From the NCBI GenBank assembly GCA_965648905.1, contig CBFGIT010000012.1, positions 31,209 through 95,208 on the forward strand: DNA of 64,000 nucleotides, given 5' to 3'. This document shows, in pieces, positions 36,706 to 54,317 of this stretch. Origin of the DNA: a candidate division WOR-3 bacterium (GTDB lineage Bacteria; Hydrothermota; Tepidihabitantia; Tepidihabitantales; Tepidihabitantaceae). Position 1 is the stretch's first letter. Every line of letters starts with the position of its first letter. The notes under the pieces were generated by a model. That model saw nothing but the letters and a program-made list of their open reading frames with translations. It was not told where the DNA came from and did not search any database. The position numbers and the translations under genes were made by a program.

Positions 36706-36719
36706 ATGGTAGGACGAAG

Positions 36720-36777
36720 GCAGAATGCAGAAGGCAGAATACAGATTGCAGAGTGCAGAATGGCAGAGGTGCAGAAA
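36720..36777 (+). repeat. GCAGAAT heptamer tandem array (~8 degenerate units)
   Basis: gcagaat gcagaag gcagaat acagatt gcagagt gcagaat (g)gcagagg (t)gcagaaa. Confidence 0.8.
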
Positions 36778-37128
36778 AGTCCAAAGGAGGCAGGAGTGCG
36801 GACAAAGGCCGAAGGCAGAGTGAGAATCGACTGCCAAGATGGCTCCTACGGACATCCAGTGCCAGCGCGGCTTCCTGAAAACAGGGCCAGACCTGCCCGC
36901 CTGCCTGGGCGCGGGCAGGCCCGACTGGTGATAGTATCGGAGGTTGGCGCAAGCTGGAAACCGAGCCGTTCCTGGGTTACACTGCGTCTAAATACCTGGC
37001 TGCCTTTCATGTCACCTGACGGGTGAAGTAATCGCATACTCACTAGACGCCGGTGACTGAAGCAAGGCAGCCTCTTTTCTTCACCCCAATTCACACCGCA
37101 ATATCGGAACTAGGGAGGCAGCGTCTGC

Positions 37129-37156
37129 TTGACTCAGGCCGAGTCAGGCCTAGACT
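37129..37156 (+). promoter_or_regulatory. sigma70-like promoter (leaderless) for the nitroreductase-fold gene
   Basis: TTGACT-N16-TAGACT-N6-ATG, no SD. Confidence 0.6.
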
Positions 37157-37162
37157 GAAGCC

Positions 37163-38626
37163 ATGACACGGACGATGCTGGTCGCTCTGATGGGCGTTGC
37201 GCTGGCAGTGTCGGCGCAGGCGCGGGTCGAGAGTCTGCCTGCGCCGGTCGTGAATGCCAGCTCGTTTGAGATTGTCAGCAACAGCCGTTACTCGTCGCAC
37301 TCGGGATTCACAAGCTCACTGCCGACCCAGGTGCTGGCGAATGTACTCTGGGCGATGAATCTGGTTCCATCGTTCGGCAGCGCGTACCGGGAGTTGTACG
37401 TGGCAACGTCGAGCAACGTGTATTTCTACGACCCGGTTGAGCACGTGTTGAGCGTGCATCTGACCGGGAATCACCGGTACAGCGCAAACTCGGCGTTCGA
37501 GGTCGGTATCGCGGTCGAACGGTATGAGGAAGCCGGGCTGGCAATCCAGGCCGGGCTTTTGGCCGGCGACGCCTTCTGGGCCCGGGGCAGTGGAACGGTG
37601 ATTTCGTGTCCGATGCAATTCGCTGCGAACCACGCGAACAGCAACTGGAGCCCGCGGCATCCGGTCAGAATGGTGAACGTCTACGGCCGCATGAGCGTGA
37701 CCGGATTGACCGATTCATGCGTTGCCCGTTCGTCAGACTCGACCCTGCCCCTGCCCCGGACCGACGGGCCGGATACGTTTGAGGTCGTGCTTGCCGACCT
37801 GACGCAGGACACGGTCTTTGACCCGGTCGGGTTGACACCTGACCAGGTCTCGCAATTGCTCTGGGCCGGTTACGGGGTGACGCCGCACATGCCCATCGGT
37901 CGGAGAGGTACGACGATACCGTCGGCAGTGGCGAACTACTACCTGACCGGGCACATCTATCTGGTCAGAGACACCGCGGTGTCGAGATACCACAATCGGC
38001 TGCCGCCGGGAACGAATCTGGCAACCAGCGACCACCGGCTTGAGACCATTACTCTGGGCGACCGGCGGGACGCGCTGCGTGCGGCGTGTCCGAGGATTCC
38101 GGCAAGCGCGCCAGTGTACATTGTGTTGAGTGTGGCCGACACGGTCAACAGCGGCTGGGGCCTGATTGAGGCCGGGTTTGCCGCATTTCAGTATCTTGCC
38201 CAGGCGCGGATTCTCGGGCTAGGTGGGCACTTGACCGCACCGTTGACGGTTGAAGAGCGGGTGGCAATTCGGGCCGCGCTCGGTCTGCCCGGTTCGGAGC
38301 ATCCGGCAATAGTCTTCTCGACCGGGTCGGTCTTGACCGGGATAGAGGAGCGCGGGCAGACCGGGGTCGCCCGACTGAGGACCATGACCGGGCTGCCGGT
38401 GCGCATTGAGTACTCGCTAGAGCGCTCCGATGTCGTGCGGTTCACGGTGTCGGACCTTGTCGGTCGTACGGTCTGTGAGTGGCAGGAGGCGGGCAGGGTC
38501 GGGATTCAATCAAGCTCGTGGTCGGGGCAGGACCGGAATGGCAGGACGGTTCCGGCTGGAGTCTATTTTGTCTGCTTGGCTGCAGGAAAGGAGACCGAAA
38601 GATGCAGGGTCGTTCTCATTCGATAG
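37163..38626 (+). CDS. Secreted nitroreductase-fold (SagB/ThcOx-like) protein with FlgD-Ig/T9SS-like CTD
   Basis: Signal peptide (AQA), VSQLLWAGYG...TTIPSAVANY, EAG; degenerate N-terminal copy (LANVLWAMN); CTD WSGQDRNGRTVPAGVYF. Confidence 0.7.
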   Translation: MTRTMLVALMGVALAVSAQARVESLPAPVVNASSFEIVSNSRYSSHSGFTSSLPTQVLANVLWAMNLVPSFGSAYRELYVATSSNVYFYDPVEHVLSVHLTGNHRYSANSAFEVGIAVERYEEAGLAIQAGLLAGDAFWARGSGTVISCPMQFAANHANSNWSPRHPVRMVNVYGRMSVTGLTDSCVARSSDSTLPLPRTDGPDTFEVVLADLTQDTVFDPVGLTPDQVSQLLWAGYGVTPHMPIGRRGTTIPSAVANYYLTGHIYLVRDTAVSRYHNRLPPGTNLATSDHRLETITLGDRRDALRAACPRIPASAPVYIVLSVADTVNSGWGLIEAGFAAFQYLAQARILGLGGHLTAPLTVEERVAIRAALGLPGSEHPAIVFSTGSVLTGIEERGQTGVARLRTMTGLPVRIEYSLERSDVVRFTVSDLVGRTVCEWQEAGRVGIQSSSWSGQDRNGRTVPAGVYFVCLAAGKETERCRVVLIR

Positions 38627-38875
38627 GAGCAAGGCCGGGTCAGGACACAACGCTTCCGGAAAGGCCTGCTGCTGCTCGGGTTCTGCCCGTTGACTGGCCC
38701 GCGAGGCGCGACGTGATGTTCTGGCCGTACGTCAGACCGATGAACCGTCCTTCAGGGGCTAACCGCCCGACCTCGCGGCTAAGATTGACAAGGCGTGGCC
38801 CAAAGGTGCTCCTGAGCCGGCGTCTGGTCTGTCTGCCTCGCGGCAGCAGGACGTAGTCAGGCCGGTCGGTCTGGC

Positions 38876-38903
38876 TTGACCGGCCATGGTTGTGCAATAG
38901 AAT
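38876..38903 (+). promoter_or_regulatory. sigma70-like promoter for the barrel/nucleotidase operon
   Basis: TTGACC-N16-TAGAAT; SD GGAGGA before TTG 38940. Confidence 0.6.
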
Positions 38904-38939
38904 CAGAGACACCGTCCTTTTGTAACCCGGAGGACAATT

Positions 38940-39758
38940 TTGGCCAGAAGTACTGCTGTGTGCTGGCTGGTGCTGTGCGCAGTAGCATCGGCTCCAGCCA
39001 TGTTCGAGGACAATGAATCCGGCGTCCGGCCCGAAGGCATGGCCGGTGCGTTCACTGCGGTCGCTGACGACGTCAGTGCTGCGGATTACAACCCTGCCGG
39101 CCTGTTTCAGGTCGGCATGGTTCAGTTTGCCGGATTCGGCAGGCTGCTCTACGGCGGTGTCGGTGTCGGACTTCACACCGCGCACCTGGCCGCGGCCGTG
39201 CCGATTCAGTCGGTCGGGACCGTGGCTTTGCGGCTGCAGGAGACCGGGTTTGACCTTCAGTCTCAGTTGTCGGTCAAGCTCGCGCACGGGTTCAGGCTGG
39301 CAGACGGGCTTGCGGTCGGGTATGGCCTGAATGGGTATCGCCTGAACCAGAAGGAGCTTGGTTCAGGCGCTGCCTACGGGGTCGACGCCGGCATGTTCGG
39401 ACGCCTCTATCGGGCGTGGACCGTGGGGTTCTACGCGCACAACCTGAACATGCCGCGCATCGGCGCCAGTGACCTGCCGCGCCTCCTGGTGGTTGGTCTT
39501 GGTTTCTCGCCTCAGCCGGGGATTCAGTCCGCAGTTGACGTGTCCAAGGAACCGGGGAAGCCGACGCGAGTGAGCGTGGGACAGGAACTTCGAGTCGTCC
39601 AGGACCATCTGACCGTGCGGGCCGGGGTTCAGACCGAGCCGGTGAGGCTGGCATTCGGGCTGCGCGCGGGGACCGAGCGGATCCATGTGGACTATGCGCT
39701 GCAGACTCATCCGATTTTGCCCATGACCCACAACCTGGGCATGACAGTGGAGTTCTAG
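38940..39758 (+). CDS. PorV/PorQ/FadL-like outer-membrane beta-barrel
   Basis: Signal peptide, GVRPEGMAGAFTAVADDVSA.DYNPAGL, alternating strands, terminal F. Confidence 0.75.
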   Translation: MARSTAVCWLVLCAVASAPAMFEDNESGVRPEGMAGAFTAVADDVSAADYNPAGLFQVGMVQFAGFGRLLYGGVGVGLHTAHLAAAVPIQSVGTVALRLQETGFDLQSQLSVKLAHGFRLADGLAVGYGLNGYRLNQKELGSGAAYGVDAGMFGRLYRAWTVGFYAHNLNMPRIGASDLPRLLVVGLGFSPQPGIQSAVDVSKEPGKPTRVSVGQELRVVQDHLTVRAGVQTEPVRLAFGLRAGTERIHVDYALQTHPILPMTHNLGMTVEF

Positions 39759-39764
39759 GCAGCA

Positions 39765-42215
39765 ATGACCGGGGCTGGACTGCTGGCAGGTCTGTGTCTG
39801 TTGTGTCTGACATGGGCCGCAGGGCCATATTCAAACTCTAATCAGATTGATATCAACAAGGCGACGCTGGAAGAGGTCCGGGCTTTGCCGGTCGATTCCG
39901 GTCTGGCTCAGCGGATATTCGACCATGTCCAGGAGTACGGTCGGCTGACAAGTATCTACGAACTACTGAGGATTGAGGGGATGACCGCCGAGCGGCTGGC
40001 CGTGCTGAAGCCGCTGGTATATGTGTCGCAGTTGGACTGGCAGGAGCGGGTTCGGCTCAACATCCAGCGAATTCAGCGCCGACTTGCTTCTGAGGAGGGA
40101 CCGACCGCGGCTGCAGTCGAGGAATGGCAGGACCTGTTAGTGACGCCAATCAACGTCAACAAGGCAACGATTGATGACCTTCTGGTACTTGACAACGTTT
40201 CGCTGGTCGACGCGGTGGCGGTTGCGAAGTTCCGGCAGGCAGGCAGCAAGCTCTCGGGCCGGCGCGACCTTGCCAACCAGGTGCCCGGGCTGTCGTCGTA
40301 CGGGTATCGGAACTTAAGGAACTTCGTTGCCTACGAGGACGTCAAAGGAATGGCGTTCGGAGGCAACGTCCGGACCGCATACGAGGCTGAGCCGAGCTGG
40401 TTTGTACAGAATTCGGTTGCCGAGTATGACCAGGCGATAGCTACCTTGGCCGACACGTCGGTCCCTTGGGGCGACACAACGCGCTATTCGGCCCGGGATA
40501 CCGCGTTCTTCCGTGAGCAGCTTGCTGCCAACCGGGCGTTTCTGGCCCAAATGGGCAACCGGGCGAGCGTTCGACACCGGGTCCGCGTGCGGACCGGCGA
40601 CCGCGTCCGGGCTGGAGTCTGGGCGGTGCAGAAGCTCTATGACCGCCGCGCGTTCGATGCGGTCAAGGGCTTTGTCAGCGTCCAGAACTTGCCGTTGGTA
40701 CGACGTCTCATGGTCGGTGACTACCGGCTGACAATCGGCCAGAGCCTGCTGCTTGACAATACGGCCGAGCTTCGGGCGCGAGTACACGAGCGGCCCCAAG
40801 GGTTGTTCAACGACCTGAGCGAGAATGCCGGGTTCGGCTTTCGCGGTGTGGCGACCGAATTGGTTGCGGGTCGACTGGGAGCAGTCGGCTTCTTCTCATC
40901 TGCTCATCGAGACGCGATTCTGAACCCGGACAGCACAGTCAACTACCTTATTGTCTCAACCCCACGTCTGCCGGCGTTCCGCAACAACCTGACCGAGACG
41001 AGCGGCGGGGCAGGCCTGAGACTTGATCTTTCAAACCTGGGGCCGGTGCCGACCGGAACCAGGCTGTCGTTAGGCGGGTTTGATGCGGCCTATGACCGGA
41101 GCTTCCGGCCTGATGCCCGGTATCTTGAGCTGCCCGGTGACGCCGATACGCTCGACGACCCAAACTACACCCGGCTTGATACGGGCCGCACCCGACGGTA
41201 CCTCGGTGCGGACTTCCGTACCGTTGTGGAGAACGTATCACTTGAGGCAGAGTATGCGACCCGACCAGGACGCGATTCACTTGGTCGGCATCGAGTTCTG
41301 CCCGGCAGCGACGCACCTGCCGCATACCTGGTCAAGACCCGGGTCCAGTACGACTATCTGTATGTTACTGCTCTCTATCGCCACTACGACGTGGGTTACG
41401 ACAATCCGTTCAACCGTGGTTTCTGCGAGCAGCTCCGGTTCGAAGACACGCCGCTGGAGAAGTCGTACCGCGTGATTGACCCGGCCTATGTTGCGCTGCA
41501 GGAGTTTCCGAGTCCGAAGGCTGAACAAGGGTTCTTTGTTGATACCCGCTATCAGATTGGCCGGCAGGTTACGTTCACCAGGGTCTATCTTGACGTCTGG
41601 CGTAACCTCGCGTGGGGAGCGGACAACTGGCGACTGCAGGGCGAGGTCGAGTATCAGCCGGTGTATCCGCTGCGCCTGCGGTTCAAGCAGAAGCTGCAGT
41701 CCAAGGAGTTGCCCAAAATCGTACAGTCCACGCGCTCGTTCACGATGGAGTCAAGCATCAGAACAATGGCCAGCCTGTCCAACTGGGACTACCTGACCCT
41801 GGAGTTGCGACACGGGCAGGTGCTCTTGACTCCGACCATGAGGTACGCAGACCAGACCAGCATGGCCGGCGACTTCGTCGCGGTGCAATGGGAGCACAAC
41901 TTCTCAGACAACTTCAACGCCGAGCTGGGCGTGGCTGGTTGGTACACACGCGGCATGTCCCAGTGGATATTTGAGGATAACGGCATCGACTTTCTCGACG
42001 GTCAGGGCATGAAGTGGTACCTGGCTCTGACCGACAGGTTGTCTGATAACCTGCTGGCTTATCTAAAGTTACGGCAGAAAGTGAGTGATTACTTCCACAC
42101 CGGTCTGGCCGGCGGGGAAGGTCTGCATTTCCGGGGAGTGAACGAGCCGGTGCGTGATTTCGTTACGCGGGGCAATTTGCTGAACATCGCCTTGCAGGTT
42201 GACCTTCTGTGGTAA
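39765..42215 (+). CDS. Outer-membrane protein with two ComEA-like helix-hairpin-helix domains and a C-terminal beta-barrel
   Basis: IDINKATLEEVRALP...IYELLRIEGM and INVNKATIDDLLVL; GDYRLTIGQSL; terminal LQVDLLW. Confidence 0.8.
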   Translation: MTGAGLLAGLCLLCLTWAAGPYSNSNQIDINKATLEEVRALPVDSGLAQRIFDHVQEYGRLTSIYELLRIEGMTAERLAVLKPLVYVSQLDWQERVRLNIQRIQRRLASEEGPTAAAVEEWQDLLVTPINVNKATIDDLLVLDNVSLVDAVAVAKFRQAGSKLSGRRDLANQVPGLSSYGYRNLRNFVAYEDVKGMAFGGNVRTAYEAEPSWFVQNSVAEYDQAIATLADTSVPWGDTTRYSARDTAFFREQLAANRAFLAQMGNRASVRHRVRVRTGDRVRAGVWAVQKLYDRRAFDAVKGFVSVQNLPLVRRLMVGDYRLTIGQSLLLDNTAELRARVHERPQGLFNDLSENAGFGFRGVATELVAGRLGAVGFFSSAHRDAILNPDSTVNYLIVSTPRLPAFRNNLTETSGGAGLRLDLSNLGPVPTGTRLSLGGFDAAYDRSFRPDARYLELPGDADTLDDPNYTRLDTGRTRRYLGADFRTVVENVSLEAEYATRPGRDSLGRHRVLPGSDAPAAYLVKTRVQYDYLYVTALYRHYDVGYDNPFNRGFCEQLRFEDTPLEKSYRVIDPAYVALQEFPSPKAEQGFFVDTRYQIGRQVTFTRVYLDVWRNLAWGADNWRLQGEVEYQPVYPLRLRFKQKLQSKELPKIVQSTRSFTMESSIRTMASLSNWDYLTLELRHGQVLLTPTMRYADQTSMAGDFVAVQWEHNFSDNFNAELGVAGWYTRGMSQWIFEDNGIDFLDGQGMKWYLALTDRLSDNLLAYLKLRQKVSDYFHTGLAGGEGLHFRGVNEPVRDFVTRGNLLNIALQVDLLW

Positions 42216-42226
42216 GAGGAGGACGA

Positions 42227-43444
42227 GTGAAAGCAGAATGCAGAGTGCAGACGGCAGAATGCAGAATGCGGAGTGCAGAATGGAAGAAGATGGGGGCTGT
42301 GCTGCTGCTCGTGGCCGCGGCGGTCGGAGAGATACCGGTAAGCGACTGGAGGGGCGAGGAGGTGACCTGGTACGACGCGCGTGCGCTGGCCCGGTGTGGC
42401 GCAGCCGGGATTGATATCGGGCCAGCCGCGGTCTTCTCTAATCCGGCCGGGCTTGCGTTCCTGCGTCGGCCGGTCGTACAGGTAAGCTACGGGATGAGGC
42501 TTGCTGCGGAGCAGCGCACGAGGGTCGTCTACGACCAGTTTGAGAACAGCCTGGGCGAGCTGGCGTACGCGGACAACGTCTACTCCAATGGCATTCCCGG
42601 GCCCATGGCTGCGGCGTACCCGCGCGGCATATTCTCTGCGGGAGCCGCGCTCGGGGCGATGCGCGACTTCAACTACACCTACCTGAGGGCGTACCGCGAT
42701 GATTTCTACGTCAAGGTGGGTGAGGACCGGGTAAGTCAGACCGGCATGTTGTACATGGTCGGGTTGGGTGCGGCGGTCCGGCCACTTGACTGGCTTGCAA
42801 CCGGATTGCGCGGCGCGTACATGTTCGGCAGCCGCAGACTCGAGTCGTGGCACGCGATGGGCGCGGATACGGCATACCTGGCAGACGAAGGCAGGCCGAC
42901 CGGCGTCCTGCTCGGTGCTGGGCTGGTCACTAATCTTCTGTCCCGGCTGCTGGTAGGCGTCGACCTTCAGAGCGGGTACCGATTGAAGAACTGGCGCGAC
43001 TCGGCCGGGACCCTGACTCTTGTTCCTTCTGTTTGTGAAGGCCGTTATCCCTGGAGCGCAAGGCTGGGGGTCTCGTACCGCGTGGCCGGACCACTGCCGG
43101 GCACGGTCTCTGCCGAAGCACGCTACAGTACATGGCATGACCTGGACTCGAACCTGAGCAACGTACTCGCGGCGCGGGCCGGGGTCGAGCACCGGATGTT
43201 GACCAAGGTGCGATTGCGTTACGGTTTCGGCGTCGAACCGATGCCCGACGACCCGGCGATTCAGGTGGCGAGCTTCGGGCTGGGCACCGGCATCGACGCC
43301 GGGCAGTTCCGTATCGACCTGGGCCTACGTTTAAGCCGCAGGGTGTTTGGTCCGACCGGATTCTGGCCTGAGTTGAGCGAAACCGATGTCCGAGTCTACG
43401 AGAGCAGGAACCACTTTGCCTTCACTTTGTCGCGTGAGTTCTAG
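42227..43444 (+). CDS. FadL-like outer-membrane beta-barrel
   Basis: DARALA..G...AVFSNPAGL, amphipathic strands, terminal F. SD GAGGAGG before GTG 42227. Confidence 0.7.
   Translation: MKAECRVQTAECRMRSAEWKKMGAVLLLVAAAVGEIPVSDWRGEEVTWYDARALARCGAAGIDIGPAAVFSNPAGLAFLRRPVVQVSYGMRLAAEQRTRVVYDQFENSLGELAYADNVYSNGIPGPMAAAYPRGIFSAGAALGAMRDFNYTYLRAYRDDFYVKVGEDRVSQTGMLYMVGLGAAVRPLDWLATGLRGAYMFGSRRLESWHAMGADTAYLADEGRPTGVLLGAGLVTNLLSRLLVGVDLQSGYRLKNWRDSAGTLTLVPSVCEGRYPWSARLGVSYRVAGPLPGTVSAEARYSTWHDLDSNLSNVLAARAGVEHRMLTKVRLRYGFGVEPMPDDPAIQVASFGLGTGIDAGQFRIDLGLRLSRRVFGPTGFWPELSETDVRVYESRNHFAFTLSREF
42233..42281 (+). repeat. GCAGAAT heptamer tandem array (7 units) in the 5' end of the barrel gene
   Basis: gcagaat gcagagt gcagacg gcagaat gcagaat gcggagt gcagaat. 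Confidence 0.85.
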
Positions 43445-44957
43445 AGTCGGCGCGGCTCTGCTTGGCTTGTGGCTTGCAGTCGTGCCGGCGCGTGCCGGGA
43501 TTCAGCATCTGTACATCGTGCACACCAACGACATTCATGGCGCACTGCTTCCGGCCGAGGCGTACTGGCTGAACCGCGACTTCCCGCCGCCGCTGGCCAA
43601 TGCTCCGGGCGTGCTCAATGTTATCCAGGAGCTCCGGCGCGAGGCAGAGTCCAAGGGGTATGGATTCCTGTTGCTCGATGGGGGAGACGTGTTCAAGGGA
43701 ACACCGCTCGGCGACTTTACGCGCGGTCAGGTCACGGTTGACTTCTTCCGGCGGGCGGGCTACGACGCGGTTGCAGCCGGCAATCACGATTTCGACTTTG
43801 GCTGGCAGGTGCTCAAGGCTATGGCTGACAGCTCAGGTCTGCCCTGGCTTGCGACAAACGTCCGCGTTGCCGGGGCCGATACCGCGCCCGCTTTTCTGAG
43901 GACGAGCATCATGTTCGAGCGCGGCGGCATCAAGGTCGGCGTGGTGGGACTCATCACCAGGTACCTGCGGGGCATGGTCACTGACAGCCAGATTGGCAAC
44001 CTTGATATTCTGCCTTACCATGACTGTGTGACCGAAGAGGCAGCCCGTCTCCGCGCGCAGGGCGCAGATGTCATCGTTGCCCTGAACCACATCGGGCACA
44101 GCCACGACATCCGTTTGGCAGATTCAGTGTCCGGCATTGATGCAATCATCGGCGCACACAGCCACACCGGCGTCAAACCGCCCTACGAAAGCCCGCACAA
44201 CCACACTATCATTCAGCAGGCTTACAGCAAGCTGAGTACGGTCGGGCTTCTCGACCTTGCCTATGACACCGAAGCGCGGACTGTGGTCGGGTACCGCGGC
44301 AGGTTGATTGACCTGATGGGTGAAGAGGTGCCGATGGACCAGGAGTACCTTGCCTGGCTTGATTCGACCCGGGCCGTGGCCGAGCGCGGCTTTGACGAGG
44401 TCTTGGGCCGAAGCGTGCGCGAGCTGACCCGGGGTGGATTCATGGAGACCCCGGCCGGCAATTTGATTACCGATGCGATGAGAGAGTACGCCCGGGCCGA
44501 CATCGCGCTCCACAACTCGGCCGGCATCCGCGCCAACATTCCCGAGGGTGAGGTCACGTTCCGGCATGTCTACGCGGTTGACATATTCGGCAACACACTG
44601 GTGACCGGAACCTACACTGGCCAGCAGGTGCGCGAGATGCTGGAGGTATCGGTGAATGGTCATCACGCGATATTCCAAGTCTCGGGTTTGAAGATGACGT
44701 ACACGAAGAAGAAGCCGATCGGCCAGCGCGTCCTCTCGGTAACAGTGAATAGTGAGCCGCTCCGACCAGAGCAGCGGTACCGAGTGGCGACCAATTCCTT
44801 CCTCGCGGCCGGCGGAGGTGAGTACGGCGTGTTTCTCGACGGCGAAGAGATCGAAGACAGCTACATGCCGTTGCGCGACCTGATTGCTCAATACATTCGT
44901 CAACACTCGCCGGTTGACGCCCGGGTTGAAGGCAGAATCGTGCTCGTTGACCACTAG
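43434..44957 (+). CDS. Periplasmic 5'-nucleotidase / UDP-sugar hydrolase (UshA family)
   Basis: Signal peptide, HTNDIHG, DGGDVFKGT, GNHDFD, GAHSH, C-terminal NSAGIR..FGN..ATNSFLAAGG. Confidence 0.92.
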   Translation: MSSRVGAALLGLWLAVVPARAGIQHLYIVHTNDIHGALLPAEAYWLNRDFPPPLANAPGVLNVIQELRREAESKGYGFLLLDGGDVFKGTPLGDFTRGQVTVDFFRRAGYDAVAAGNHDFDFGWQVLKAMADSSGLPWLATNVRVAGADTAPAFLRTSIMFERGGIKVGVVGLITRYLRGMVTDSQIGNLDILPYHDCVTEEAARLRAQGADVIVALNHIGHSHDIRLADSVSGIDAIIGAHSHTGVKPPYESPHNHTIIQQAYSKLSTVGLLDLAYDTEARTVVGYRGRLIDLMGEEVPMDQEYLAWLDSTRAVAERGFDEVLGRSVRELTRGGFMETPAGNLITDAMREYARADIALHNSAGIRANIPEGEVTFRHVYAVDIFGNTLVTGTYTGQQVREMLEVSVNGHHAIFQVSGLKMTYTKKKPIGQRVLSVTVNSEPLRPEQRYRVATNSFLAAGGGEYGVFLDGEEIEDSYMPLRDLIAQYIRQHSPVDARVEGRIVLVDH

Positions 44958-44976
44958 GCCGGACGGGCATCGAAAG

Positions 44977-46599
44977 ATGTGGCCCAGGCGCGAGGTTGAC
45001 GAAGCCGCAGTTGCGGTGCTGGCCGAGCAGGCCCATGTTACGCCGGTCATGGCGCGACTGCTCTGGCTGCGTGGAGTCCGAAGCGGCCCTGAGGTCGAGC
45101 GCTGGCTGCATCCCTCGGTTGAGCACTTCCATCCGCCTGAGCTGTTGCCGGATTTTGACCGAGCGGTTGCCCGCATCGAACAGGCGGTCGCCCGACAGGA
45201 GGAGATTCTGCTCTGGGGGCACGACGACCTGGACGGCATCACCTCGATTGTCATCCTGTATCGGCTGCTCACCGACCTGCGAGCACGGGTTGGTTACCAT
45301 GTTCCGGCGCGCGGCCGCGAGAAGCACGGCCTGACCGCGGCAGTTGTGCTAGCTCGGAAGAGTGCTGGGATTCGGCTGGTTGTGACCGTGGACTGCGGCA
45401 TCACCAACCGTGACCAGATTGAGGTGCTCCACCACCAGGGAATCGACGTCGTGGTTACCGACCATCACGAAGTGCCGGACCCGATGCCCGGGGCAGTGGC
45501 AAACGTGGACGCAAAACGGCGGGACTCGGTCTATCCGTATCGTGGTCTGGCCAGTGCCGGCGTGGCTCTGAAGCTGGGCATGGGGCTGGTGCGCAGGCGG
45601 TTGGGCTTGACGTTTGCTGAGTTCCTTTCGGTTCAGCCGGAGCTGTTGGCTCTGGCAGTGCTCGGCACGATCGCCGACCGGGTGCCGTTGACCGGCGAGA
45701 ATCGAACTCTTGTCAGGGTAGGGTTGAAACGGCTTGAGAACACGCGGCTGCCCGCGGTTCGGGCCGTGCTTGACCGGTTGACGCGGCGGGAGCCGCTCTC
45801 GGTCAGCCGGTTTCTGGCCGACCTGCTGCCGCTCTTTGCGGCCGCGGTCGGAAACGACGCAGTCGCCAAGTTCATCAGTGCGACCCGGGAAGAGGCTGAA
45901 GCCTGGGTTGACGGGCTGGAGGCGGAGAGCCGGGCCTGGCGTGCCGAGGCCGAGCGGACGCTGGAGCAGGCAGCGCGTCAGGTGATCCTCGGTGACGGCA
46001 TTCTCTTTGTTCGCAGTCGGGAGCTGTCCTTGCGGGCGCTCGGGTTTTGCGCGGCCAAGCTGAAAGACCGGTATCAGGTGCCCGCGGTGGTCATGGGTTG
46101 GCGCGGTGATGCCTGGGTCGGCGAGTGCCGAGGCATTGAGGGCGTCAGCCTGCTCGACCTGCTAAACGCGTTGGCCGGGTGCTTCATTGACTTCGGCGGA
46201 CACAAGAAGGCTGCCGGGTTCTCGATTGCTGATGACCGGACTGATGAGTTCATCCGCATGGCTGAGGAGTATGCTCATCGCAACTTCGCCGGCAGGATTC
46301 AGCCTGAGAACAGGGTGATGGTTGATGCGGTGCTGCCATTCGCCGAGTTTGACCCCGGGCTGGCTGCGCTCGGGCCGTTCGGCGACGGTAATCCCCAGCC
46401 GGTGTTTGAGTCCGGTCCGGTGAGACTGGTCGCCGACGGTGACGCCCTGCGACCAGCGGTCCGGCGCGATTTGGCTCTGAAGGCGGTGCGCGGTGCGCTC
46501 GCGGTTGAGCCGGAGAGTGACTGGAACCTGCTCTACACCGTGGATGAGACCGGCGGGCTGACTGCGCTTGATGCCCGTTCTGTGTCGGTCAATCAGTAG
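44977..46599 (+). CDS. recJ: RecJ-like DHH single-stranded DNA exonuclease
   Basis: DDLDG, TVDCG, TDHH, ASAGVA, GTIAD, GGHKKAAG, PFG.GNP.P. Alternative start at TTG 44947. Confidence 0.8.
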   Translation: MWPRREVDEAAVAVLAEQAHVTPVMARLLWLRGVRSGPEVERWLHPSVEHFHPPELLPDFDRAVARIEQAVARQEEILLWGHDDLDGITSIVILYRLLTDLRARVGYHVPARGREKHGLTAAVVLARKSAGIRLVVTVDCGITNRDQIEVLHHQGIDVVVTDHHEVPDPMPGAVANVDAKRRDSVYPYRGLASAGVALKLGMGLVRRRLGLTFAEFLSVQPELLALAVLGTIADRVPLTGENRTLVRVGLKRLENTRLPAVRAVLDRLTRREPLSVSRFLADLLPLFAAAVGNDAVAKFISATREEAEAWVDGLEAESRAWRAEAERTLEQAARQVILGDGILFVRSRELSLRALGFCAAKLKDRYQVPAVVMGWRGDAWVGECRGIEGVSLLDLLNALAGCFIDFGGHKKAAGFSIADDRTDEFIRMAEEYAHRNFAGRIQPENRVMVDAVLPFAEFDPGLAALGPFGDGNPQPVFESGPVRLVADGDALRPAVRRDLALKAVRGALAVEPESDWNLLYTVDETGGLTALDARSVSVNQ

Positions 46600-46606
46600 T
46601 CGACAC

Positions 46607-47773
46607 GTGCCGGAGAAGCGCATTCACATCTCGCGCAAACGCAGCCGGGCCCAGCACGCCTGGGTTTTCTCGAATGAAGTCCAACGTACTGAGGGTAACC
46701 CTGGGCCCGGTGATCTGGTGCTGATCATGGAACGGAACCGGCTGGTCGGCTCGGCGGTCTACAATCCGCATTCGTTGATTCGTGCCCGGTTGTACTCGGA
46801 CCGAGACGAAGAGATGGACAAGGCGTTCATCGTACGCCGTATCAGGACCGCATGGGAGTATCGGCAGGAGCGGCTGCCGGGTGAGCGCGACTGCCGGCTG
46901 GTTTATGGTGAGAGCGACCACATGCCCGGTCTGGTCATTGACAAGTACGGTGACCACTTCGTGGTGCAGACATACTGCCTTGCCTTGGACTTGAGGCTTG
47001 AACTCGTGGTTGAGGCGCTGAGAGAGCTGTTCGACACCGCCTGCGTGTTCGAGAAGAATGACTTCCGGCTGCGCGAGCCGGAGAGTCTGCCGCGACGTGA
47101 AGGAGTGCTCTACGGTGTGCCGCGAGCTGACGTTGTCATATCCGAATCGGGCGTGCGGTTCCGGGTGGACATTGCAGCCGGGCAGAAGACCGGGTACTAC
47201 TTTGACCACCGGCTGACCCGGCGCAAGGTCAGAGAGATGGCACGCGACAAGTCGGTATTCGACGTGTTCTGCTACACCGGTTCATTCGCGATTAACGCAG
47301 CTCTCGGTGGTGCGACACGCGTGGTGGCGCTCGACGCTTCGCTCGCGGCTTGTCAGATGGCCCGGGTCAATGCCGGGCTCAACGGCGTCGAAGACCGATG
47401 TGAGTTCGTTGTCGCCGATGCGTTCCGGGCGCTCGTGCAGATGGTTCGGAGTGGAACCCGGTTCGACCTGGTCTGCCTTGATCCGCCCGCCTTCATCAAG
47501 CGTCGGCACGAGAAGGATGCCGGTCTGCGTGGCTACCGCACGGTCAACGCGCTGGGCATGAAGCTGCTGACCGAGGGCGGGACGCTGGTTACGTCGTCCT
47601 GCTCGCATTACCTGTTCTGGCAGGACATGCTCGACATGCTGGTCGGCGCGGCTCAGGATGCAGGGCGGAGCTTCACGATTCTCGACCGTTCTACCCAGGG
47701 GCCGGACCATCCGGTGCTGCTTTCCATGCCGGAGTCAGAGTACCTGCGCTGTTTCGCACTCAAGGTGCACTAG
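46607..47773 (+). CDS. rlmI: RlmI-family 23S rRNA m5C methyltransferase
   Basis: PUA domain (AWVFSNEV), ESDHMPGLVIDKY, GQKTGYY.D, DVFCYTGSF, LDPPAF, TSSCS, DHP..PESEYL. Confidence 0.9.
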   Translation: MPEKRIHISRKRSRAQHAWVFSNEVQRTEGNPGPGDLVLIMERNRLVGSAVYNPHSLIRARLYSDRDEEMDKAFIVRRIRTAWEYRQERLPGERDCRLVYGESDHMPGLVIDKYGDHFVVQTYCLALDLRLELVVEALRELFDTACVFEKNDFRLREPESLPRREGVLYGVPRADVVISESGVRFRVDIAAGQKTGYYFDHRLTRRKVREMARDKSVFDVFCYTGSFAINAALGGATRVVALDASLAACQMARVNAGLNGVEDRCEFVVADAFRALVQMVRSGTRFDLVCLDPPAFIKRRHEKDAGLRGYRTVNALGMKLLTEGGTLVTSSCSHYLFWQDMLDMLVGAAQDAGRSFTILDRSTQGPDHPVLLSMPESEYLRCFALKVH

Positions 47774-47793
47774 TCCCGCGAACCGGCGGGCGT

Positions 47794-49137
47794 CTAGCGG
47801 GTGAGGCGGGGTGACCAGGCGGGCGAGAACGCACCGCCGGTCTGAGTGATGCGGGTCTGGCGGGCGCCGGTCCAGTCCATGGTGTAGACTTCGAAGACGC
47901 CGGTCCGGTCCGAAGCGAACGCGATGTGCAGGCCGTCCGGAGACCAGCACGGGTCTTCGTTGTTTCGGCCGGAAGTGAGACGCATGTAGGTATCGCCGGC
48001 GATATTCGTGACGCAGATCTGATTGGTCCCGCCGGGCTGACGTTGGACAAAGGCAACCAGGTCGCCGCGCGGGGACCAGGCTGGAGATGTGTTGTAGCTG
48101 CCCTCAAAGGTGAGTCGGCGCAGGTCGGTTCCGTCAGCGTTAATGACGTAGACCTGGGGCGTGCCGGTGCGGTCCGAGACAAATGCCAGTTGTCGGCCGT
48201 TCGGTGACCAGCAGGGTGAGATGTCGATGCCCGGGCTGAACGTCAACCGGCGGAGGTTTCGGCCGTCACCGTCCATCAGGTAGATTTCGGACTGGCCCTC
48301 AAAGCTGAGCGAGACCGCGAGTGTCCGGCCGTCGGGTGACCAAGCCGGGGTCGTATTCAGTCCTTTGCGGTCGCTGAGCACGGTTGTGCGGCGGGTCACA
48401 AGGTCGAGCGCATAGATGTTGAGCGTGCTTGTGCCGAACGAGCAGTAGGCAAGCCGGGCTGACTGCTGGTTCCAGTCCGGGAAGAGCTTCAGTCCGCCCG
48501 AGCTGGTTAGCTGGGTCAGTCCGGCACCGTCGTAGTCAACCCAGGCGAGTTCCTTGGTCTCGCGGCTGAGTACCTGAGAGAACACAATCCTGGTTCGGGA
48601 AATCCCGTCCTCGCCGGTGAGGATCTTGATGACCTCGTCGGCCATCTGGTGTGCGGTCCAGCGCCAGGGGGCGGTCAGAGGATACGTCTTGGTGGCGATG
48701 AGCCGCTGTGCCTCAAGGTCATAAAGCCGCAACTGAACCTGTTCGGTCCCTTTGCGCGGGACCAGCTCGCCGCAGACGAGAATCTGAGCGCCGGTTGTGC
48801 TCCAGCCTTTCAGGTCCGGTTTCTTGGCATCGGTCGAGAAGTTGAAGGTCTTGCCTGATTCCGGTTCCTCGAAGGTGAAGTAAAGAGAGTATCTGAGGTC
48901 GGCCTCAAACACGTTTCTTATGTCGCGAATCTGGACTGCGAGCTTGGCATCAGTGCCGGCTGGAGTCGTGAACCGGGCGATAACCAGGCTGAACTTCCGG
49001 CGGCCGCCGCCCGAGGTCAGCTTGGCCCAGACTTCTTCGGCTGGAATCCCGGCGTCCGGAGCCGGAGTGAGCGGCGGCTGCTCAGTCTGCGCCTGAGCGT
49101 GCAGGGCAAGGAAACCAATCAGCACGACCGGGGTCAA
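47794..49137 (-). CDS. tolB: TolB beta-propeller protein
   Basis: TolB_N-like region (AHQMADEV..LTGEDG..TRIVF) and PD40 repeats (P.WSPDG, FVSDRTG.PQVY). Start inferred at TTG 49137, which gives a signal peptide. Confidence 0.85.
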   Translation of the reverse strand: MTPVVLIGFLALHAQAQTEQPPLTPAPDAGIPAEEVWAKLTSGGGRRKFSLVIARFTTPAGTDAKLAVQIRDIRNVFEADLRYSLYFTFEEPESGKTFNFSTDAKKPDLKGWSTTGAQILVCGELVPRKGTEQVQLRLYDLEAQRLIATKTYPLTAPWRWTAHQMADEVIKILTGEDGISRTRIVFSQVLSRETKELAWVDYDGAGLTQLTSSGGLKLFPDWNQQSARLAYCSFGTSTLNIYALDLVTRRTTVLSDRKGLNTTPAWSPDGRTLAVSLSFEGQSEIYLMDGDGRNLRRLTFSPGIDISPCWSPNGRQLAFVSDRTGTPQVYVINADGTDLRRLTFEGSYNTSPAWSPRGDLVAFVQRQPGGTNQICVTNIAGDTYMRLTSGRNNEDPCWSPDGLHIAFASDRTGVFEVYTMDWTGARQTRITQTGGAFSPAWSPRLTR

Positions 49138-49149
49138 TCTCAGCAGGAT

Positions 49150-49178
49150 TTGACGCAGAATGTCGGCTGGGGTATAAT
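49150..49178 (+). promoter_or_regulatory. Near-consensus sigma70 promoter (leaderless) for the zinc-ribbon gene
   Basis: TTGACG-N17-TATAAT-N7-GTG. Confidence 0.7.
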
Positions 49179-49185
49179 TATCCCA

Positions 49186-49467
49186 GTGCCGGTAAGGGAA
49201 GGAAGCGCGACAGACTGCCCGCATTGCGGCTTGGAGCTGCGCAGGGAAGGCTGCTACTGCACGAACTGCGGTGCCCGCCTTGCTCAGCGGGTCGCCGCGG
49301 ACGGGCCGAACCTGCCCCGCTACCAGCGGCGGGCTCGCCGCGTGGTTACTCCGGCCCGCTGCAGTGCTTTTCACCACGAACTGCTCGTTACAGTCTTCAA
49401 GGCGACATTCTGTCCGGAGTGCGGCCGTCGGCTGATTGTCGGGCTGCTCAGGCCCGAAGTCAGCTAG
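49186..49467 (+). CDS. Small double zinc-ribbon protein
   Basis: CPHC, CTNC, CSAFHH and CPEC in 93 aa; has its own promoter. Confidence 0.65.
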   Translation: MPVREGSATDCPHCGLELRREGCYCTNCGARLAQRVAADGPNLPRYQRRARRVVTPARCSAFHHELLVTVFKATFCPECGRRLIVGLLRPEVS

Positions 49468-49496
49468 CGCGGTTCGCATTCGTCAACTCGGTTGTC

Positions 49497-50243
49497 CTAG
49501 CGGATGACCGGGAGCCAGTCGTGCAGCAGGAAGTAGAACCGGCCAATGAGCAGAGAGATGCGGGCCATGATCGTGTAGCCGAACGACGCGCCGAAAGCAA
49601 CCATGATGAAGACAATACCGACCCGCGAGACCAGTCCTAGCGCACCCTTGTGTTCGCGCGAGAAGTAGAAGTAGAAAAGAGTCGTGATGACTCCGACGAA
49701 GATAACGATGTTATTGGCATTCACCAAGGGACGGAGCGTGTCCGAGACCTGGGGCAGCAGGTAGCCCTGGACAGCGGCAACGAGCGCAAGGCCAGAGCCA
49801 ATTCCGACCGTGAACGAGATCGGCCAGCGTGATAACCACTCGATGCGCGGGTTGATCAGCGTTGGCACGAACACGACCAGGCACATGACGGCAAGTACCA
49901 CCAGTATCCAACTGAAATGGTGGAACACGAGCATCAGCACGCTCAACGCGGCCAGGGCGGGCAGAGTCAGGTTCGAACGCGTGAGCATGATGACTCCGAG
50001 CAGGGCGGGCAGGAGCAGAATCCAGGCTTCGACGCGGCTACCGGAGGCGATGTGGCTGTCGAAACGCTCGACCAGCATGGGGTAGACGTCGAATGACCAG
50101 GCGTAGATGACTGTGAACCCGGCCGAGATGCCGACATAGATGTGCTCGGCCGCCTTGTAGAGCGGATTGTCACGATAGAGGAACGAGAGAATCGCAATCG
50201 TCAGGGTCGCGGCAACCCAGGTGCCGATGAGGTTGAGAATCAT
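49497..50243 (-). CDS. Polytopic membrane protein of the DUF6754 cluster
   Basis: About 6-7 TMs; SFLYRDNPLYKAAEHIYVG, MVAFGASFGYTIMARISLL. Confidence 0.8.
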   Translation of the reverse strand: MILNLIGTWVAATLTIAILSFLYRDNPLYKAAEHIYVGISAGFTVIYAWSFDVYPMLVERFDSHIASGSRVEAWILLLPALLGVIMLTRSNLTLPALAALSVLMLVFHHFSWILVVLAVMCLVVFVPTLINPRIEWLSRWPISFTVGIGSGLALVAAVQGYLLPQVSDTLRPLVNANNIVIFVGVITTLFYFYFSREHKGALGLVSRVGIVFIMVAFGASFGYTIMARISLLIGRFYFLLHDWLPVIR

Positions 50244-51064
50244 GGCTTGCTCTTGCGGCGGGACAGGATGAAGCCCAGATTGCCGAGCAGAAGCAGGAAG
50301 ATAATCAGCGCATGGGCCCAGGACTGGGCCGGCATTCCGAGCGAGGCCGAACCACGCTGCTCGACCAGTTGCTCGTAGGCGGCCGCGGCCTGGAGTCCGC
50401 CAATCAGGCCCTTGATTTGTCCGGAAAGGAGATACTGATACAGATTTGGGGCGTTGACGCCGGTGCAGCCGACGATAATCGGTACGTTGAACCGGCCGCC
50501 GGCATACTGAATCCAGACGTCGGCGACCGCGCCATGGGCCAGCGAGACCAGAAGTCCGATGTCGCGGTAGTTGTGGACACGGTGCATGAACTCGAACGAG
50601 TCGACCGGCACGCCCCGGTAGTCGACATTGAAGTAGTCGCGGATCTCGCGGCCGATGCCGACCATCATCGCGGTGTAGCCGGGCCGGTACCCGAGGTTGA
50701 CGTAGTCCTGACCGTAGACCTTGCCCATCGCGGGCGCGACCTGATTGAGCGCGATGCCGCCCAGGGGCAGGCCGAGCGGCAGTTGTCCCATGAGCATTAC
50801 CTTCAGGTCCTTCTGGAACGAGTGGCGGAGCAGGGCGAGCAGCATCGGATTGACCTCGGGCGCAGATGATGGGTCGAAGTCAATCGAAATCATCACGACC
50901 GAGCCCGCCGGAAGCCGGTCAACCGCATCGTAGGCCCCGCGCACGGCGTCAGAGACCGGCACGGTCGTACGCGGCCGGATGATGAGCGGCAGAGCGACCG
51001 ACAGGGCAAGCAGGGTGTACAGAATCCGGCGGTCAACGCTGGCCAGGCGGTTCCAGATGTTCAT
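50240..51064 (-). CDS. Membrane-anchored alpha/beta protein of the DUF6754 cluster
   Basis: N- and C-terminal TMs; YGQDYVNLGYRPG, YLLSGQIKGLIGGL..AA.YE, QSWAH. Confidence 0.8.
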   Translation of the reverse strand: MNIWNRLASVDRRILYTLLALSVALPLIIRPRTTVPVSDAVRGAYDAVDRLPAGSVVMISIDFDPSSAPEVNPMLLALLRHSFQKDLKVMLMGQLPLGLPLGGIALNQVAPAMGKVYGQDYVNLGYRPGYTAMMVGIGREIRDYFNVDYRGVPVDSFEFMHRVHNYRDIGLLVSLAHGAVADVWIQYAGGRFNVPIIVGCTGVNAPNLYQYLLSGQIKGLIGGLQAAAAYEQLVEQRGSASLGMPAQSWAHALIIFLLLLGNLGFILSRRKSKP

Positions 51065-51066
51065 GG

Positions 51067-51768
51067 CTAGGACATGTAAGTGCGTTCGATGCCGAGGATG
51101 ATGCGCAGCGACATCGCCATGCCGCCCAAGGCCAGGCCGATGCCGATACCACGACCGGCCGCGGCCTGGGGGGTAGCCATGAGCCAGTCTTTGATTCGGG
51201 CAAACGGCTCAAGGCCAGCAAGATGACTCAGGTCCAGAGAGGGGAGGACCAGTTGGATTAGTCGGACAATGCCGTGCCAGATGTCGGTGCCCAGAGGTAC
51301 GTTGCCGAGCATGACGAAGCAGGCGGCAAGGAGCAGCAGGGTGGCAGCGAAGTTGCGGACGCGGAACGCACGGTAAGCTGCCGAGACGATGAAGAACGCA
51401 AGACTGGCAAACATCGTTGACTGGAGCGGGATTATCATGTAGGTGTAGAGCCACATGAACGGCGCCTGCAGCGCAAACGGGCTCTGGAACCGAAACCAGG
51501 AATAGAGGCCGAGCACAACCGTCGAGGTCAGCGAGAGCAGAAGCAGCAGGCTGTAGGGCCAGCCCGGACTGCGTCGAAAGACCCGGACCAGGTGATGACG
51601 GGTGAGCGAGTCGAGCCCTAAGAGCATCGTGAACCCGGCGACGATTGTGTACCAGTTGAGGAAGCGCGATTCCAGGTCGCCGAACGGCCGGTGCGGGATG
51701 AAGAACGCAACGATGAGCAGGACTGAGGTAAGGAAGACGATGACCAGCGGAACTGTGCGCTTGAGCAT
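51067..51768 (-). CDS. Polytopic membrane protein of the DUF6754 cluster
   Basis: About 6 TMs; PLQSTMFASLAFFIVSAAYRAFR, GIGIG..LG..LRIILGIER. Confidence 0.8.
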   Translation of the reverse strand: MLKRTVPLVIVFLTSVLLIVAFFIPHRPFGDLESRFLNWYTIVAGFTMLLGLDSLTRHHLVRVFRRSPGWPYSLLLLLSLTSTVVLGLYSWFRFQSPFALQAPFMWLYTYMIIPLQSTMFASLAFFIVSAAYRAFRVRNFAATLLLLAACFVMLGNVPLGTDIWHGIVRLIQLVLPSLDLSHLAGLEPFARIKDWLMATPQAAAGRGIGIGLALGGMAMSLRIILGIERTYMS

Positions 51769-51771
51769 CGG

Positions 51772-52908
51772 CTAGTAGGTGGGCGTGGCCCAGCGCACAA
51801 CGGTCTCGAACGCCGCAACCAGGGCTGGAGCACGGGCGACCGTTGCTGCAGTGCCGAAGAGCACGAGCGCAGTCGTCAGCAGTATCAGCCAGAAACGGAT
51901 GAAATCTTCGCCTTTGATTGTGCCGAGCATCACCGGCTCGGGCCGCAGGTAGCAGGAGGCGGCGAAGATCTCTTCGCCGATCATCGTGTAGTCGCAGGCC
52001 GCGACAAAGAAGGGCAACTGAGTTGTCTCGGTCGTACCGGCGAGTTGAATCGCGCCGACCGAGTGGCCGGTCTCAGCCATAATCAGCGACTCAGCATAGA
52101 AGTAGCCCAGCCAGAAGATCGCGCCGGGCCGTTCGCGCAGAATGATGCCGTCAACGCCCGCGGCATAGCCGAACTGGTCTGAGGTGAGGAAGTTGACGTT
52201 GTCGGCGTTGTAGAGGTCAGGTCGGCCGGCTTCAGTGTAGGCCTCCTTGACCGTTTCCTGTGCCGCGGTCATGACGATCGGGTCGGAATTGGGCACAAGC
52301 AGCCGGGATGAGTACTCGGCAGTGCGGCGGGCGATCCGACGCAGCAGGGGCAGGGCAGCGATGACGACCATGTCGGTGATATAGCCGAGTCCGAAGCTGA
52401 ACAGTATCGGCTTGCCCATCTCGGTCGCGCGGCCGAGCGCGTCGTCGATCGCGTCGAGCCCGGCAATCTTGCGGATGAACATCTTCTCACCCCGGCGGGC
52501 CCGGGCAATATAGACGAAGAATATGAGACAGATGGCAACGATGGCAACGAGGATGTTGGTGCGGGCGGTGTTGAACCACTGGGCCCGAGACCGAACCGGG
52601 CCAAAGACCAGGCTGCGGGCCGAATCGGCGCCGACATATCCGACAATCAGATAGTAGTAGTTGATACCATCGCGCAGCCCGGAATCCTGATACTCGGTTG
52701 AGCTGGCCGGCTCGGTTGCCACGACAGTGAAGCCCGAGTCGGCGTTGACTGAGCGGTACAGGCGGATGCTGTCAAGGAGCGGAGGTTGGTCTTCGGTCCA
52801 GCGCCAGGACACGAGGAGTTGTCCGCCTTCGTCATTCGGAACGTCGGCGACCGTGACGTTCGGGGGCGGAACCGGCGCAACGAGAAGGAGCAGGAGGGCG
52901 AAGGTCAT
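51772..52908 (-). CDS. FN3-domain + DUF6754 membrane protein
   Basis: Signal-like start, FN3 domain (DVPND.G, Y.D..L..G..YYY), TM, IRKIAGLDAIDDALGRATEMGKP, AESLIMAETG, QLPFFVAACDY..IGEE. Start inferred at ATG 52908. Confidence 0.82.
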   Translation of the reverse strand: MTFALLLLLVAPVPPPNVTVADVPNDEGGQLLVSWRWTEDQPPLLDSIRLYRSVNADSGFTVVATEPASSTEYQDSGLRDGINYYYLIVGYVGADSARSLVFGPVRSRAQWFNTARTNILVAIVAICLIFFVYIARARRGEKMFIRKIAGLDAIDDALGRATEMGKPILFSFGLGYITDMVVIAALPLLRRIARRTAEYSSRLLVPNSDPIVMTAAQETVKEAYTEAGRPDLYNADNVNFLTSDQFGYAAGVDGIILRERPGAIFWLGYFYAESLIMAETGHSVGAIQLAGTTETTQLPFFVAACDYTMIGEEIFAASCYLRPEPVMLGTIKGEDFIRFWLILLTTALVLFGTAATVARAPALVAAFETVVRWATPTY

Positions 52909-52933
52909 AGTCGTCAGCAGGCTTGAAACAAAC

Positions 52934-52961
52934 AGCTTAGCGGGCCTGACGGGCAAGTCAA
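52934..52961 (-). promoter_or_regulatory. sigma70-like promoter for the DUF6754 operon
   Basis: TTGACT-N16-TAAGCT. Confidence 0.5.
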
Positions 52962-54214: not shown

Positions 54215-54219
54215 GAGCA

Positions 54220-54247
54220 AGTATAGAAGGGACAGGCCGGCAGTCAA
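54220..54247 (-). promoter_or_regulatory. sigma70-like promoter (leaderless) for larA
   Basis: TTGACT-N16-TATACT-N5-GTG. Confidence 0.65.
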
Positions 54248-54267
54248 CCATCGGGCCGGACTGAAAG

Positions 54268-54295
54268 CCCGGGGCGGCCCTGCGGCCGCCCCGGG
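54268..54295 (-). terminator. 12-bp GC hairpin downstream of the 1329-aa gene
   Basis: cccggggcggcc-N4-ggccgccccggg followed by cttt on the minus strand. Confidence 0.6.
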
Positions 54296-54317
54296 AGAGG
54301 TTGCGAAGGTCGTGAGG

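Follow-up and report, generated by a model that had tools for sequence, protein, structure and literature searches.

What does a cell gain from encoding three outer-membrane barrels in one tight run with a secreted nucleotidase? The question is raised by a stretch of 64,000 nucleotides (nt), here called the window, from contig CBFGIT010000012.1 of a candidate division WOR-3 bacterium (assembly GCA_965648905.1). An earlier note on positions 38,876 to 46,599, made from the sequence alone, had described this run as a candidate five-gene locus for scavenging extracellular nucleic acid, in which a barrel with two ComEA-type helix-hairpin-helix (HhH) domains binds DNA. The present analysis redraws that unit. 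Four of the genes, here named A to D, together with an OB-fold/DUF5689 protein that carries the C-terminal tail of type IX secretion system (T9SS) cargo, probably make up an accessory system of the outer membrane, which captures nucleic acid from outside and would supply the cell with its nucleotides. The locus is real, conserved and apparently undescribed, and appears to be a new build of DNA-utilization locus with a candidate new class of channel.

The host genome comprises 3.0 Mb and is 99.6% complete, and the homologues of B carry names from candidate division WOR-3. Five open reading frames (ORFs) lie on the same (+) strand, spaced in order by 6, 11, −11 and 19 nt, and the three barrels end in aromatic residues (Phe in A, Trp in B and Phe in C), as had been described. 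A (38940..39758, 272 residues) is a PorV/PorQ-like small outer-membrane barrel. B (39765..42215, 816 residues), the candidate channel, consists of a signal peptide, two non-canonical (HhH)2 domains and a predicted 24-strand barrel. C (42227..43444) is modeled as a 14-strand barrel of the FadL/BamG fold, with 405 residues when read from a GTG behind a GAGGAGG site (the longest ORF starts at 42209), and D (about 43434..44957, 507 residues; longest ORF from 43386) is a secreted UshA-family 5'-nucleotidase. The fifth frame encodes a RecJ paralogue, and a sixth gene of the run (46607-47773), RlmI-like, was absent from the earlier list. The module is the four genes A to D, not five.

Its limits are drawn by the gene order of relatives. 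At E ≤ 1e-40, the B family is found in 145 of 272 WOR-3 genomes. To cover many families and favor long contigs, 60 neighborhoods were taken from 59 of these, two of them from one genome; adding two loci from a scan of named-genome contigs and the window, minus one locus that duplicates G184, gives 62 loci, some of them cut by contig ends. A lies directly before B in 53 and C directly after it in 33, and D is present in 30, always with C. Other neighbors are a T9SS-tailed OB-fold protein before A (21 loci), RecJ (15), a NucT-like PLD protein (13) and, after D, a UgpB-like ATP-binding cassette (ABC) gene (three). For a second sample, metagenomes were scanned with a profile made from distant relatives of B (about 30% identity to B); the best 80 of 416 matching stretches were kept, 78 of them with a B hit, and many are close kin. 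Wherever these distant loci have enough flank, they contain A (47/47), a tailed cargo (41/41), C (64/64) and D (36/36), and the order cargo-A-B-C-D is constant. The B family also occurs in clusters in which Fidelibacterota, Cloacimonadota and Bacteroidota are the most frequent phyla. This conserved linkage to a nucleotidase and a surface cargo supports the analogy with polysaccharide-utilization loci that had been proposed.

The tailed cargo is the missing fifth part, overlooked by the earlier note, and it is the best evidence for that note's own idea. Its gene in the host genome lies on contig C6 (C6:14407-16029), unlinked to A-D; in relatives it is found directly upstream of A. The C6 protein passes the DUF5689 cut-off (34.8 bits against 28.6) as well as the OB-fold cut-off and matches the OB part of ExeM/NucH, and 12 of 16 members of the OB cargo family match DUF5689 at E ≤ 0.01. 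According to the available parts of two reports, DUF5689 is the domain of DdbD (PMC12478041) and of RA0C_RS04920 (PMC8459023), two proteins linked to the uptake or use of DNA. LTD and OB, in the available part of a third, are the two non-catalytic modules of the nuclease ExeM (PMC6085458).

The distribution of this cargo was compared with that of B across the 272 WOR-3 genomes, at E ≤ 1e-40 for B and E ≤ 1e-60 for the OB cargo, with three to four candidates scored per genome and the sets typed by hand from tables. Both are present in 135 genomes, B only in 10, the cargo only in six and neither in 121; among the 145 genomes that are at least 93% complete, these counts become 81, one, zero and 63. 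At the level of families (anonymous labels f1-f43), 23 hold both, 20 hold neither and none holds only one. Joint presence or absence varies inside genera g8, g14, g50 and g52, and the pattern holds where the genes are unlinked (f1, f2, f21-23, f28, f30-32). The cargo tracks B almost perfectly, through joint gain and loss.

The tail of the cargo belongs to a shared type. When the 39 tail-like domains in the host genome are scored with a profile for which 24 distant tail-only cargoes were the sole source, the C6 protein comes first, narrowly (32.3 against 31.8 bits). No other match among the top 12 is nearly full-length, and the terminal signature is found in no other of the 39. The body of the cargo varies in distant loci, with OB repeats in 27 of 59 profile-matching ORFs and LTD repeats without OB in all three of the tail-only cargoes that were checked. 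The C6 gene itself overlaps a gene for a UgpB-like ABC binding protein by 4 nt (C6:13151-16029), and it follows a Tad-like pilus cluster.

The RecJ-like exonuclease, which had been counted as part of the locus, is a cytoplasmic second paralogue (44977..46599, + strand, 540 residues). Its DHH/DHHA1 motifs are intact, yet it scores 306 bits against a cut-off of 397 and shares 33% identity with the housekeeping RecJ, which is encoded on contig C5. This type of RecJ is confined to one order and a few relatives, and its distribution is scarcely related to that of B (both in 39 of the 272 genomes, B only in 106, RecJ only in 24, neither in 103; phi 0.09). It occurs in none of the 26 distant loci with a long downstream flank. 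Its companion is the gene of an RlmI-like 23S rRNA methyltransferase (46607..47773, + strand), which begins 7 nt after recJ and forms one run with it: in a survey of 20 upstream regions, one of them a B locus without RecJ, rlmI is adjacent in 16 of the remaining 19, and A-D-type genes lie upstream in one. In genome G197 (97% complete), gidA directly adjoins recJ-rlmI, while congeners hold A-D between them; therefore A-D have gone as a block, and the OB gene is also absent. As recJ-rlmI persists without A-D, RecJ was rejected as a module part, and the pair is a separate neighbor and a bystander. In the pair of the window (44977-47773), motif I of this second RecJ paralogue is altered, and its coupling to rlmI extends across an order of WOR-3. 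Of the nucleotidase/RecJ linkage proposed earlier, only the nucleotidase half endures.

Further controls concern the machinery that the host already has. SprA is found in 142 of 145 genomes, ComEC in 107 of 108 and PilT in 98 of 108, and B in 82 of 145. As the former are near-universal and B is patchy, the module is accessory, neither core secretion nor a pilus replacement. B was rejected as a core T9SS component, a possibility that the earlier note had itself raised against its reading, since 62 of the 142 SprA-positive genomes are without B; this count applies to the present B clade, a divergent paralogue on contig C34 lying outside the survey. It was likewise rejected as a stand-in for type IV pili, being present in one of the 10 genomes without PilT. 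The host genome holds PilT, secretins, ComEC, DprA and a separate canonical ComEA, so that "pilus-independent", if it means a replacement for pili, finds no support. SprA is encoded on contig C10, where a canonical comEA follows its gene immediately, in the same orientation and after 11 nt (C10:5906-11847).

The model of B (mean pLDDT 84) shows two HhH domains, a helical linker and a large barrel of 24 strands, counted by hand from the DSSP list. Searches with Foldseek and VIA return generic barrels only (TM at most 0.32), the best VIA match being AlgE (Z 15.7 at a root-mean-square deviation (rmsd) of 6.3) and 24-strand ushers reaching Z 13-14; neither program lists a close solved relative, which is not proof of a new fold. 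There is no Pfam or NCBIfam hit to the TonB-receptor family, B lies outside the nine PF00593 matches of the genome, and tblastn against plasmids gives no match. The positions predicted to face the lumen average 32.9 Lys/Arg against 19.3 Asp/Glu, by a heuristic applied without a control barrel, and the conserved columns among them comprise 26 basic and 11 acidic ones. Among relatives, P0098 is a 1251-residue fusion of TPR repeats to a full HhH-barrel.

Both HhH stretches match HHH_3 (E 2.6e-14; PF12836, 53.5 bits), and weak matches to GspK models are also found. Domain 1 (residues 24-87; 39834..40025, + strand) has the ComEA fold, superimposing on 8dss with VIA Z 11.6 and on 2duy with Z 10.1 (rmsd 2.3), and its first hairpin is altered. 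When aligned to 8dss, it has Asp, Pro or Ser at the Gly60 position, and the Lys63 position is Lys in 12 of 63 rows and Leu in the window protein. Domain 2 (residues 128-190; 40146..40334, + strand) has Ser, Thr or Asn at the Gly60 position, and in 62 of 63 rows the residue that corresponds to Lys63 is Asp (D149). In the available part of the report on Vibrio cholerae ComEA, the changes K63E, K62/63A and G60E/V abolish uptake (PMC3879209), and K164/K166 are central in that on Bacillus/Geobacillus ComEA (PMC9747964). ComEA-style DNA binding by B is doubtful on these residues, because both domains are without the hairpin Gly and Lys that ComEA needs, and the earlier assignment of such binding to them finds no support. 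Domain 2 is nonetheless strongly conserved (Y179 in 61 of 63 rows, R182 in 44, R185 in 53); its median net charge is +4, and the helix of its second hairpin is aromatic and basic. Because this conservation persists despite the loss of the ComEA residues, the domain is probably maintained for a different job. The database label "ComE-like DNA uptake protein" is misleading for these barrels, because their HhH domains have lost the DNA contacts of ComEA. The stand-alone ComEA of the host genome has kept its canonical hairpins. A further protein of this genome (C16:32567-34477) is 5'-nucleotidase-like, with altered metal motifs, and is fused to a canonical ComEA HhH domain that exceeds the TIGR00426 cut-off.

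The small barrels match PorV/FadL models only below cut-offs: A reaches 29 bits (E 7.8e-7) against NF033709, where 90 are required, and C reaches 17 bits. A tree of 36 rows was made from the window A, 22 loci proteins chosen for spread and 13 PorV-like paralogues of the host genome. In this tree, the proteins encoded before HhH-barrels group as one clade (support 98/93) that leaves out 12 of the 13 paralogues. The one included is the long-branched partner of the second HhH-barrel on contig C34. A is predicted to be a dedicated partner of HhH-barrels and the anchor for the cognate T9SS cargo. The C34 pair itself (C34:1704-4249) is a divergent PorV-like protein and HhH-barrel of 267 and 583 residues, without nucleic-acid neighbors and also with altered HhH hairpins. 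C is modeled with high confidence (pLDDT 93) as a FadL-fold barrel with an N-terminal hatch, and its closest folds are FadL and BamG (Foldseek E 2e-15, TM about 0.7).

D is a two-domain UshA-family enzyme (PF02872, E 2e-40, plus PF00149) with all metal motifs intact. It carries a signal peptide and no T9SS tail, and it has a proline-rich loop specific to the family. UshA-family enzymes have broad substrates, which include UDP-sugars and NAD. As D scores 187 against a cut-off of 600 for the UshA equivalog, its substrate range may differ from that of UshA. Besides the 11 WOR-3 D rows discussed below, two have altered motifs, and among 40 distant D proteins motif I is found in 39 with a looser pattern and in 11 with the strict one. 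In one homologue of D (L040:11945-13939), an OmpA peptidoglycan-binding domain is inserted in the phosphoesterase domain, which fits a periplasmic D. Additional genes accompany D in some lineages. Families f2 and f4 (L042-L045, L110) have a gene for a PHP/CehA-type metallohydrolase after D, which in f2 carries a T9SS tail and has a second PorV/PorQ-like gene behind it, and a gene of 360-470 codons (cluster m15) stands between C and D in some distant loci (L170-L173, L176).

The model proposed from these parts is as follows. The T9SS would secrete the cargo, and A would hold it on the cell surface through its distinctive C-terminal tail, a role suggested by gene order, by co-occurrence and by what PorV-type barrels do. 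Its OB or LTD repeats would bind DNA or RNA, and fragments could then pass through B, whose fold is predicted and whose wide, net-basic barrel would suit such transport. On the periplasmic side, the remodeled HhH domains may act as a gate or as a docking or single-strand-binding platform, rather than as a ComEA ratchet. D, whose coupling to C is suggested by their linkage, would remove phosphate, so that nucleosides and phosphate could be taken up. The UgpB-like ABC system might serve this uptake, and DeoC and a nucleoside phosphorylase, encoded in the host genome and both common genes, the subsequent catabolism. The purpose is more likely nutrition than transformation. The scavenging idea of the earlier note is thus upheld in part: the linked 5'-nucleotidase, the OB-fold/DUF5689 or LTD cargo, the NucT-like nucleases of some loci and the UgpB-like ABC genes speak for it, whereas RecJ and ComEA-type binding drop out.

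Several observations weigh against this model. About half of the WOR-3 loci are without C and D altogether, and pairs related to A-B exist without any nucleic-acid neighbors, one of them that on C34 in the host genome itself. The HhH domains of B are without the proven DNA contacts of ComEA, and the canonical first hairpin is found in none of 57 distant full-length B proteins. One large distant clade has a cargo with LTD repeats and no detectable OB fold. A secreted nuclease is absent from the locus of the host genome and, as searched with the PLD profile, from all 26 distant loci with a long downstream flank. The co-occurrence counts involve genomes that are kin rather than independent, and an OB profile that was built from 15 neighbors of B and the C6 protein. 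Lastly, 11 of the 31 WOR-3 D rows have a short N-terminal domain that has lost the metal ligands and kept the family loop, which weakens a purely catabolic reading. The loci in which D is reduced to this dead domain are those with a PLD gene between C and D. This pattern speaks for D having a structural or binding function in addition to its catalytic one.

The rival that survives best, although unlikely, takes the barrels as a display scaffold rather than an importer. A and B would be a small export or attachment pair, similar to SprA-PorV, for a single cargo, C would hold or export D, and the products would enter through ordinary porins. What the complex displays would then be a protein that binds nucleic acid and an ecto-nucleotidase. 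In favor of this, A resembles PorV and never lacks a tailed cargo before it, the tails having a signature in common, and a generic A-B pair exists without enzymes. Bacteroidota barrels of the FadL/BamG fold, nearest to that of C, hold partner proteins, and D keeps its special loop even when dead. The loss of DNA contacts from the HhH domains and their weak matches to GspK models fit as well. However, SprA is present in the same genomes, so that a second translocon is not needed, D is without the T9SS tail, and the predicted lumen of B is net basic, with the excess of conserved basic columns given above.

It might also be argued that capture serves natural transformation, as an outer-membrane step like that of Riemerella RA0C_RS04915/04920, in which the OB protein catches DNA and B passes it to periplasmic ComEA and ComEC. 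According to the available part of that report (PMC8459023), R. anatipestifer cannot be transformed without a DUF5689 protein. The host genome has ComEC, DprA and ComEA, and an inactive D, as in some lineages, would be in keeping with uptake that leaves DNA undegraded. This explanation is nevertheless improbable: ComEC is kept in the genomes without B, B does not replace pili where PilT is missing, the recurrent neighbor clusters that were identified include no comEC or dprA, and the linked enzymes are degradative. There is equally little to recommend a third rival, in which the module serves the envelope or adhesion, binds some other anion (phosphorylated glycan, nucleotide sugar or polyphosphate) and owes its nucleic-acid look to reused folds, since the LTD-only cargo of one clade, the generic-scoring matches of B to AlgE and other anion or glycan channels, and the broad specificity of the UshA and PLD families are outweighed by the recurrence of several unrelated nucleic-acid modules (OB/DUF5689, HhH, 5'-nucleotidase, NucT-like PLD).

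If the nucleic-acid capture model is retained, a bolder proposal can be attached to it, tentatively and with somewhat less than even confidence. B may found a new class among the outer-membrane transporters of nucleic acid, as a 24-strand channel independent of both TonB and pili. Its gating would fall to the remodeled HhH domains, its receptor would be an OB/LTD protein displayed by the T9SS and docked on a dedicated PorV-like barrel, and a second FadL-fold barrel would couple it to a nucleotidase that could turn into a catalytically dead lid for binding. Sediments and sludge contain much phosphorus, nitrogen and carbon in the form of extracellular DNA, and the locus offers a candidate channel open to testing, a receptor picked out because it co-occurs almost perfectly, and a clean unit of four genes. 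If this proposal is true, several uncultured phyla of the Fibrobacterota–Chlorobiota–Bacteroidota (FCB) group would gain a dedicated route to environmental DNA and RNA, and there would be a hint of what the large, unstudied family of PorV-plus-HhH-barrel pairs in Bacteroidota does.

As for the surroundings in the window, a putative sigma-70-type promoter-like site lies 5' of A (38876..38903, + strand; TTGACC-16-TAGAAT, 10 of 12 consensus matches) and ranks best among six sites in 36800-48500, where 2.2 ± 1.6 are expected after shuffling; it may be the single promoter that had been proposed for the run. The guanine-plus-cytosine content of the six genes (A-D, recJ, rlmI) is 0.60-0.65 against 0.62 for the genome, and therefore nothing suggests recent import. 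An Rfam search of the window gave no matches. A 7-bp tandem repeat occurs at 42229-42282, inside the 5' end of gene C, where it extends the signal region, and at 36716-36776, with nine arrays of at least two exact units genome-wide. Just upstream of the operon (37163-38626) is a nitroreductase-family protein with a T9SS-like tail, which is not a recurrent neighbor, and a convergent run on the minus strand (47794-54421) comprises tolB, three Pfam-less membrane proteins, a DUF6754 protein and a LarA-like racemase.

The literature searched, with subscription journals mostly outside coverage, describes neither this barrel family nor the operon, and the outer-membrane step of extracellular DNA entry is left open for Porphyromonas gingivalis in the available part of one study (PMC11532111). 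Known systems resemble the locus in separate parts. The HhH domains share the (HhH)2 fold of ComEA from V. cholerae and Bacillus subtilis (8dss and 2duy, VIA Z 10-11.6), but the Gly60/Lys63 positions are Asp/Leu in domain 1 and Ser/Asp in domain 2, the domains are fused to a barrel, and a canonical ComEA is encoded separately. As in SprA-PorV of the T9SS and BamA-BamG of Bacteroidota, a large barrel is paired with a 14-strand FadL-fold barrel, and the cargo has a C-terminal sorting domain; B, however, matches neither SprA nor BamA by sequence or fold search. The ExeM/UshA pathway of Shewanella and Vibrio likewise combines LTD and OB modules with a periplasmic 5'-nucleotidase, but the cargo here is without the EEP catalytic domain, and ExeM systems, in the available part of their description, have no dedicated barrels (PMC6085458).

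Another parallel is the trio RA0C_RS04915/04920/02645 of R. anatipestifer, in which a DUF5689 surface protein, a barrel and an HhH protein are needed for DNA uptake without a type IV pilus, as given in the available part of its report (PMC8459023). In the way it would work, the module resembles the ddbABCDEF cluster of Bacteroides thetaiotaomicron, although its channel is unrelated. DdbC is TonB-dependent, whereas B is without a TonB-receptor hit and has HhH domains instead of a plug domain, although the two were not aligned directly; the DUF5689 protein of the present system is T9SS-tailed, there are two extra FadL-fold barrels, and the enzyme is a 5'-nucleotidase. The DUF5689 partner is present but unlinked in the host genome, and adjacent in 21 of the 62 WOR-3 loci. 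As far as the available part of its description goes (PMC12478041), ddb is a cluster similar to a polysaccharide-utilization locus that joins an outer-membrane transporter to a DUF5689 OB-fold partner and nucleic-acid hydrolases, its Pv2-type loci are also without a secreted nuclease, and it belongs, like A-D, to the FCB lineage, in which both are patchy.

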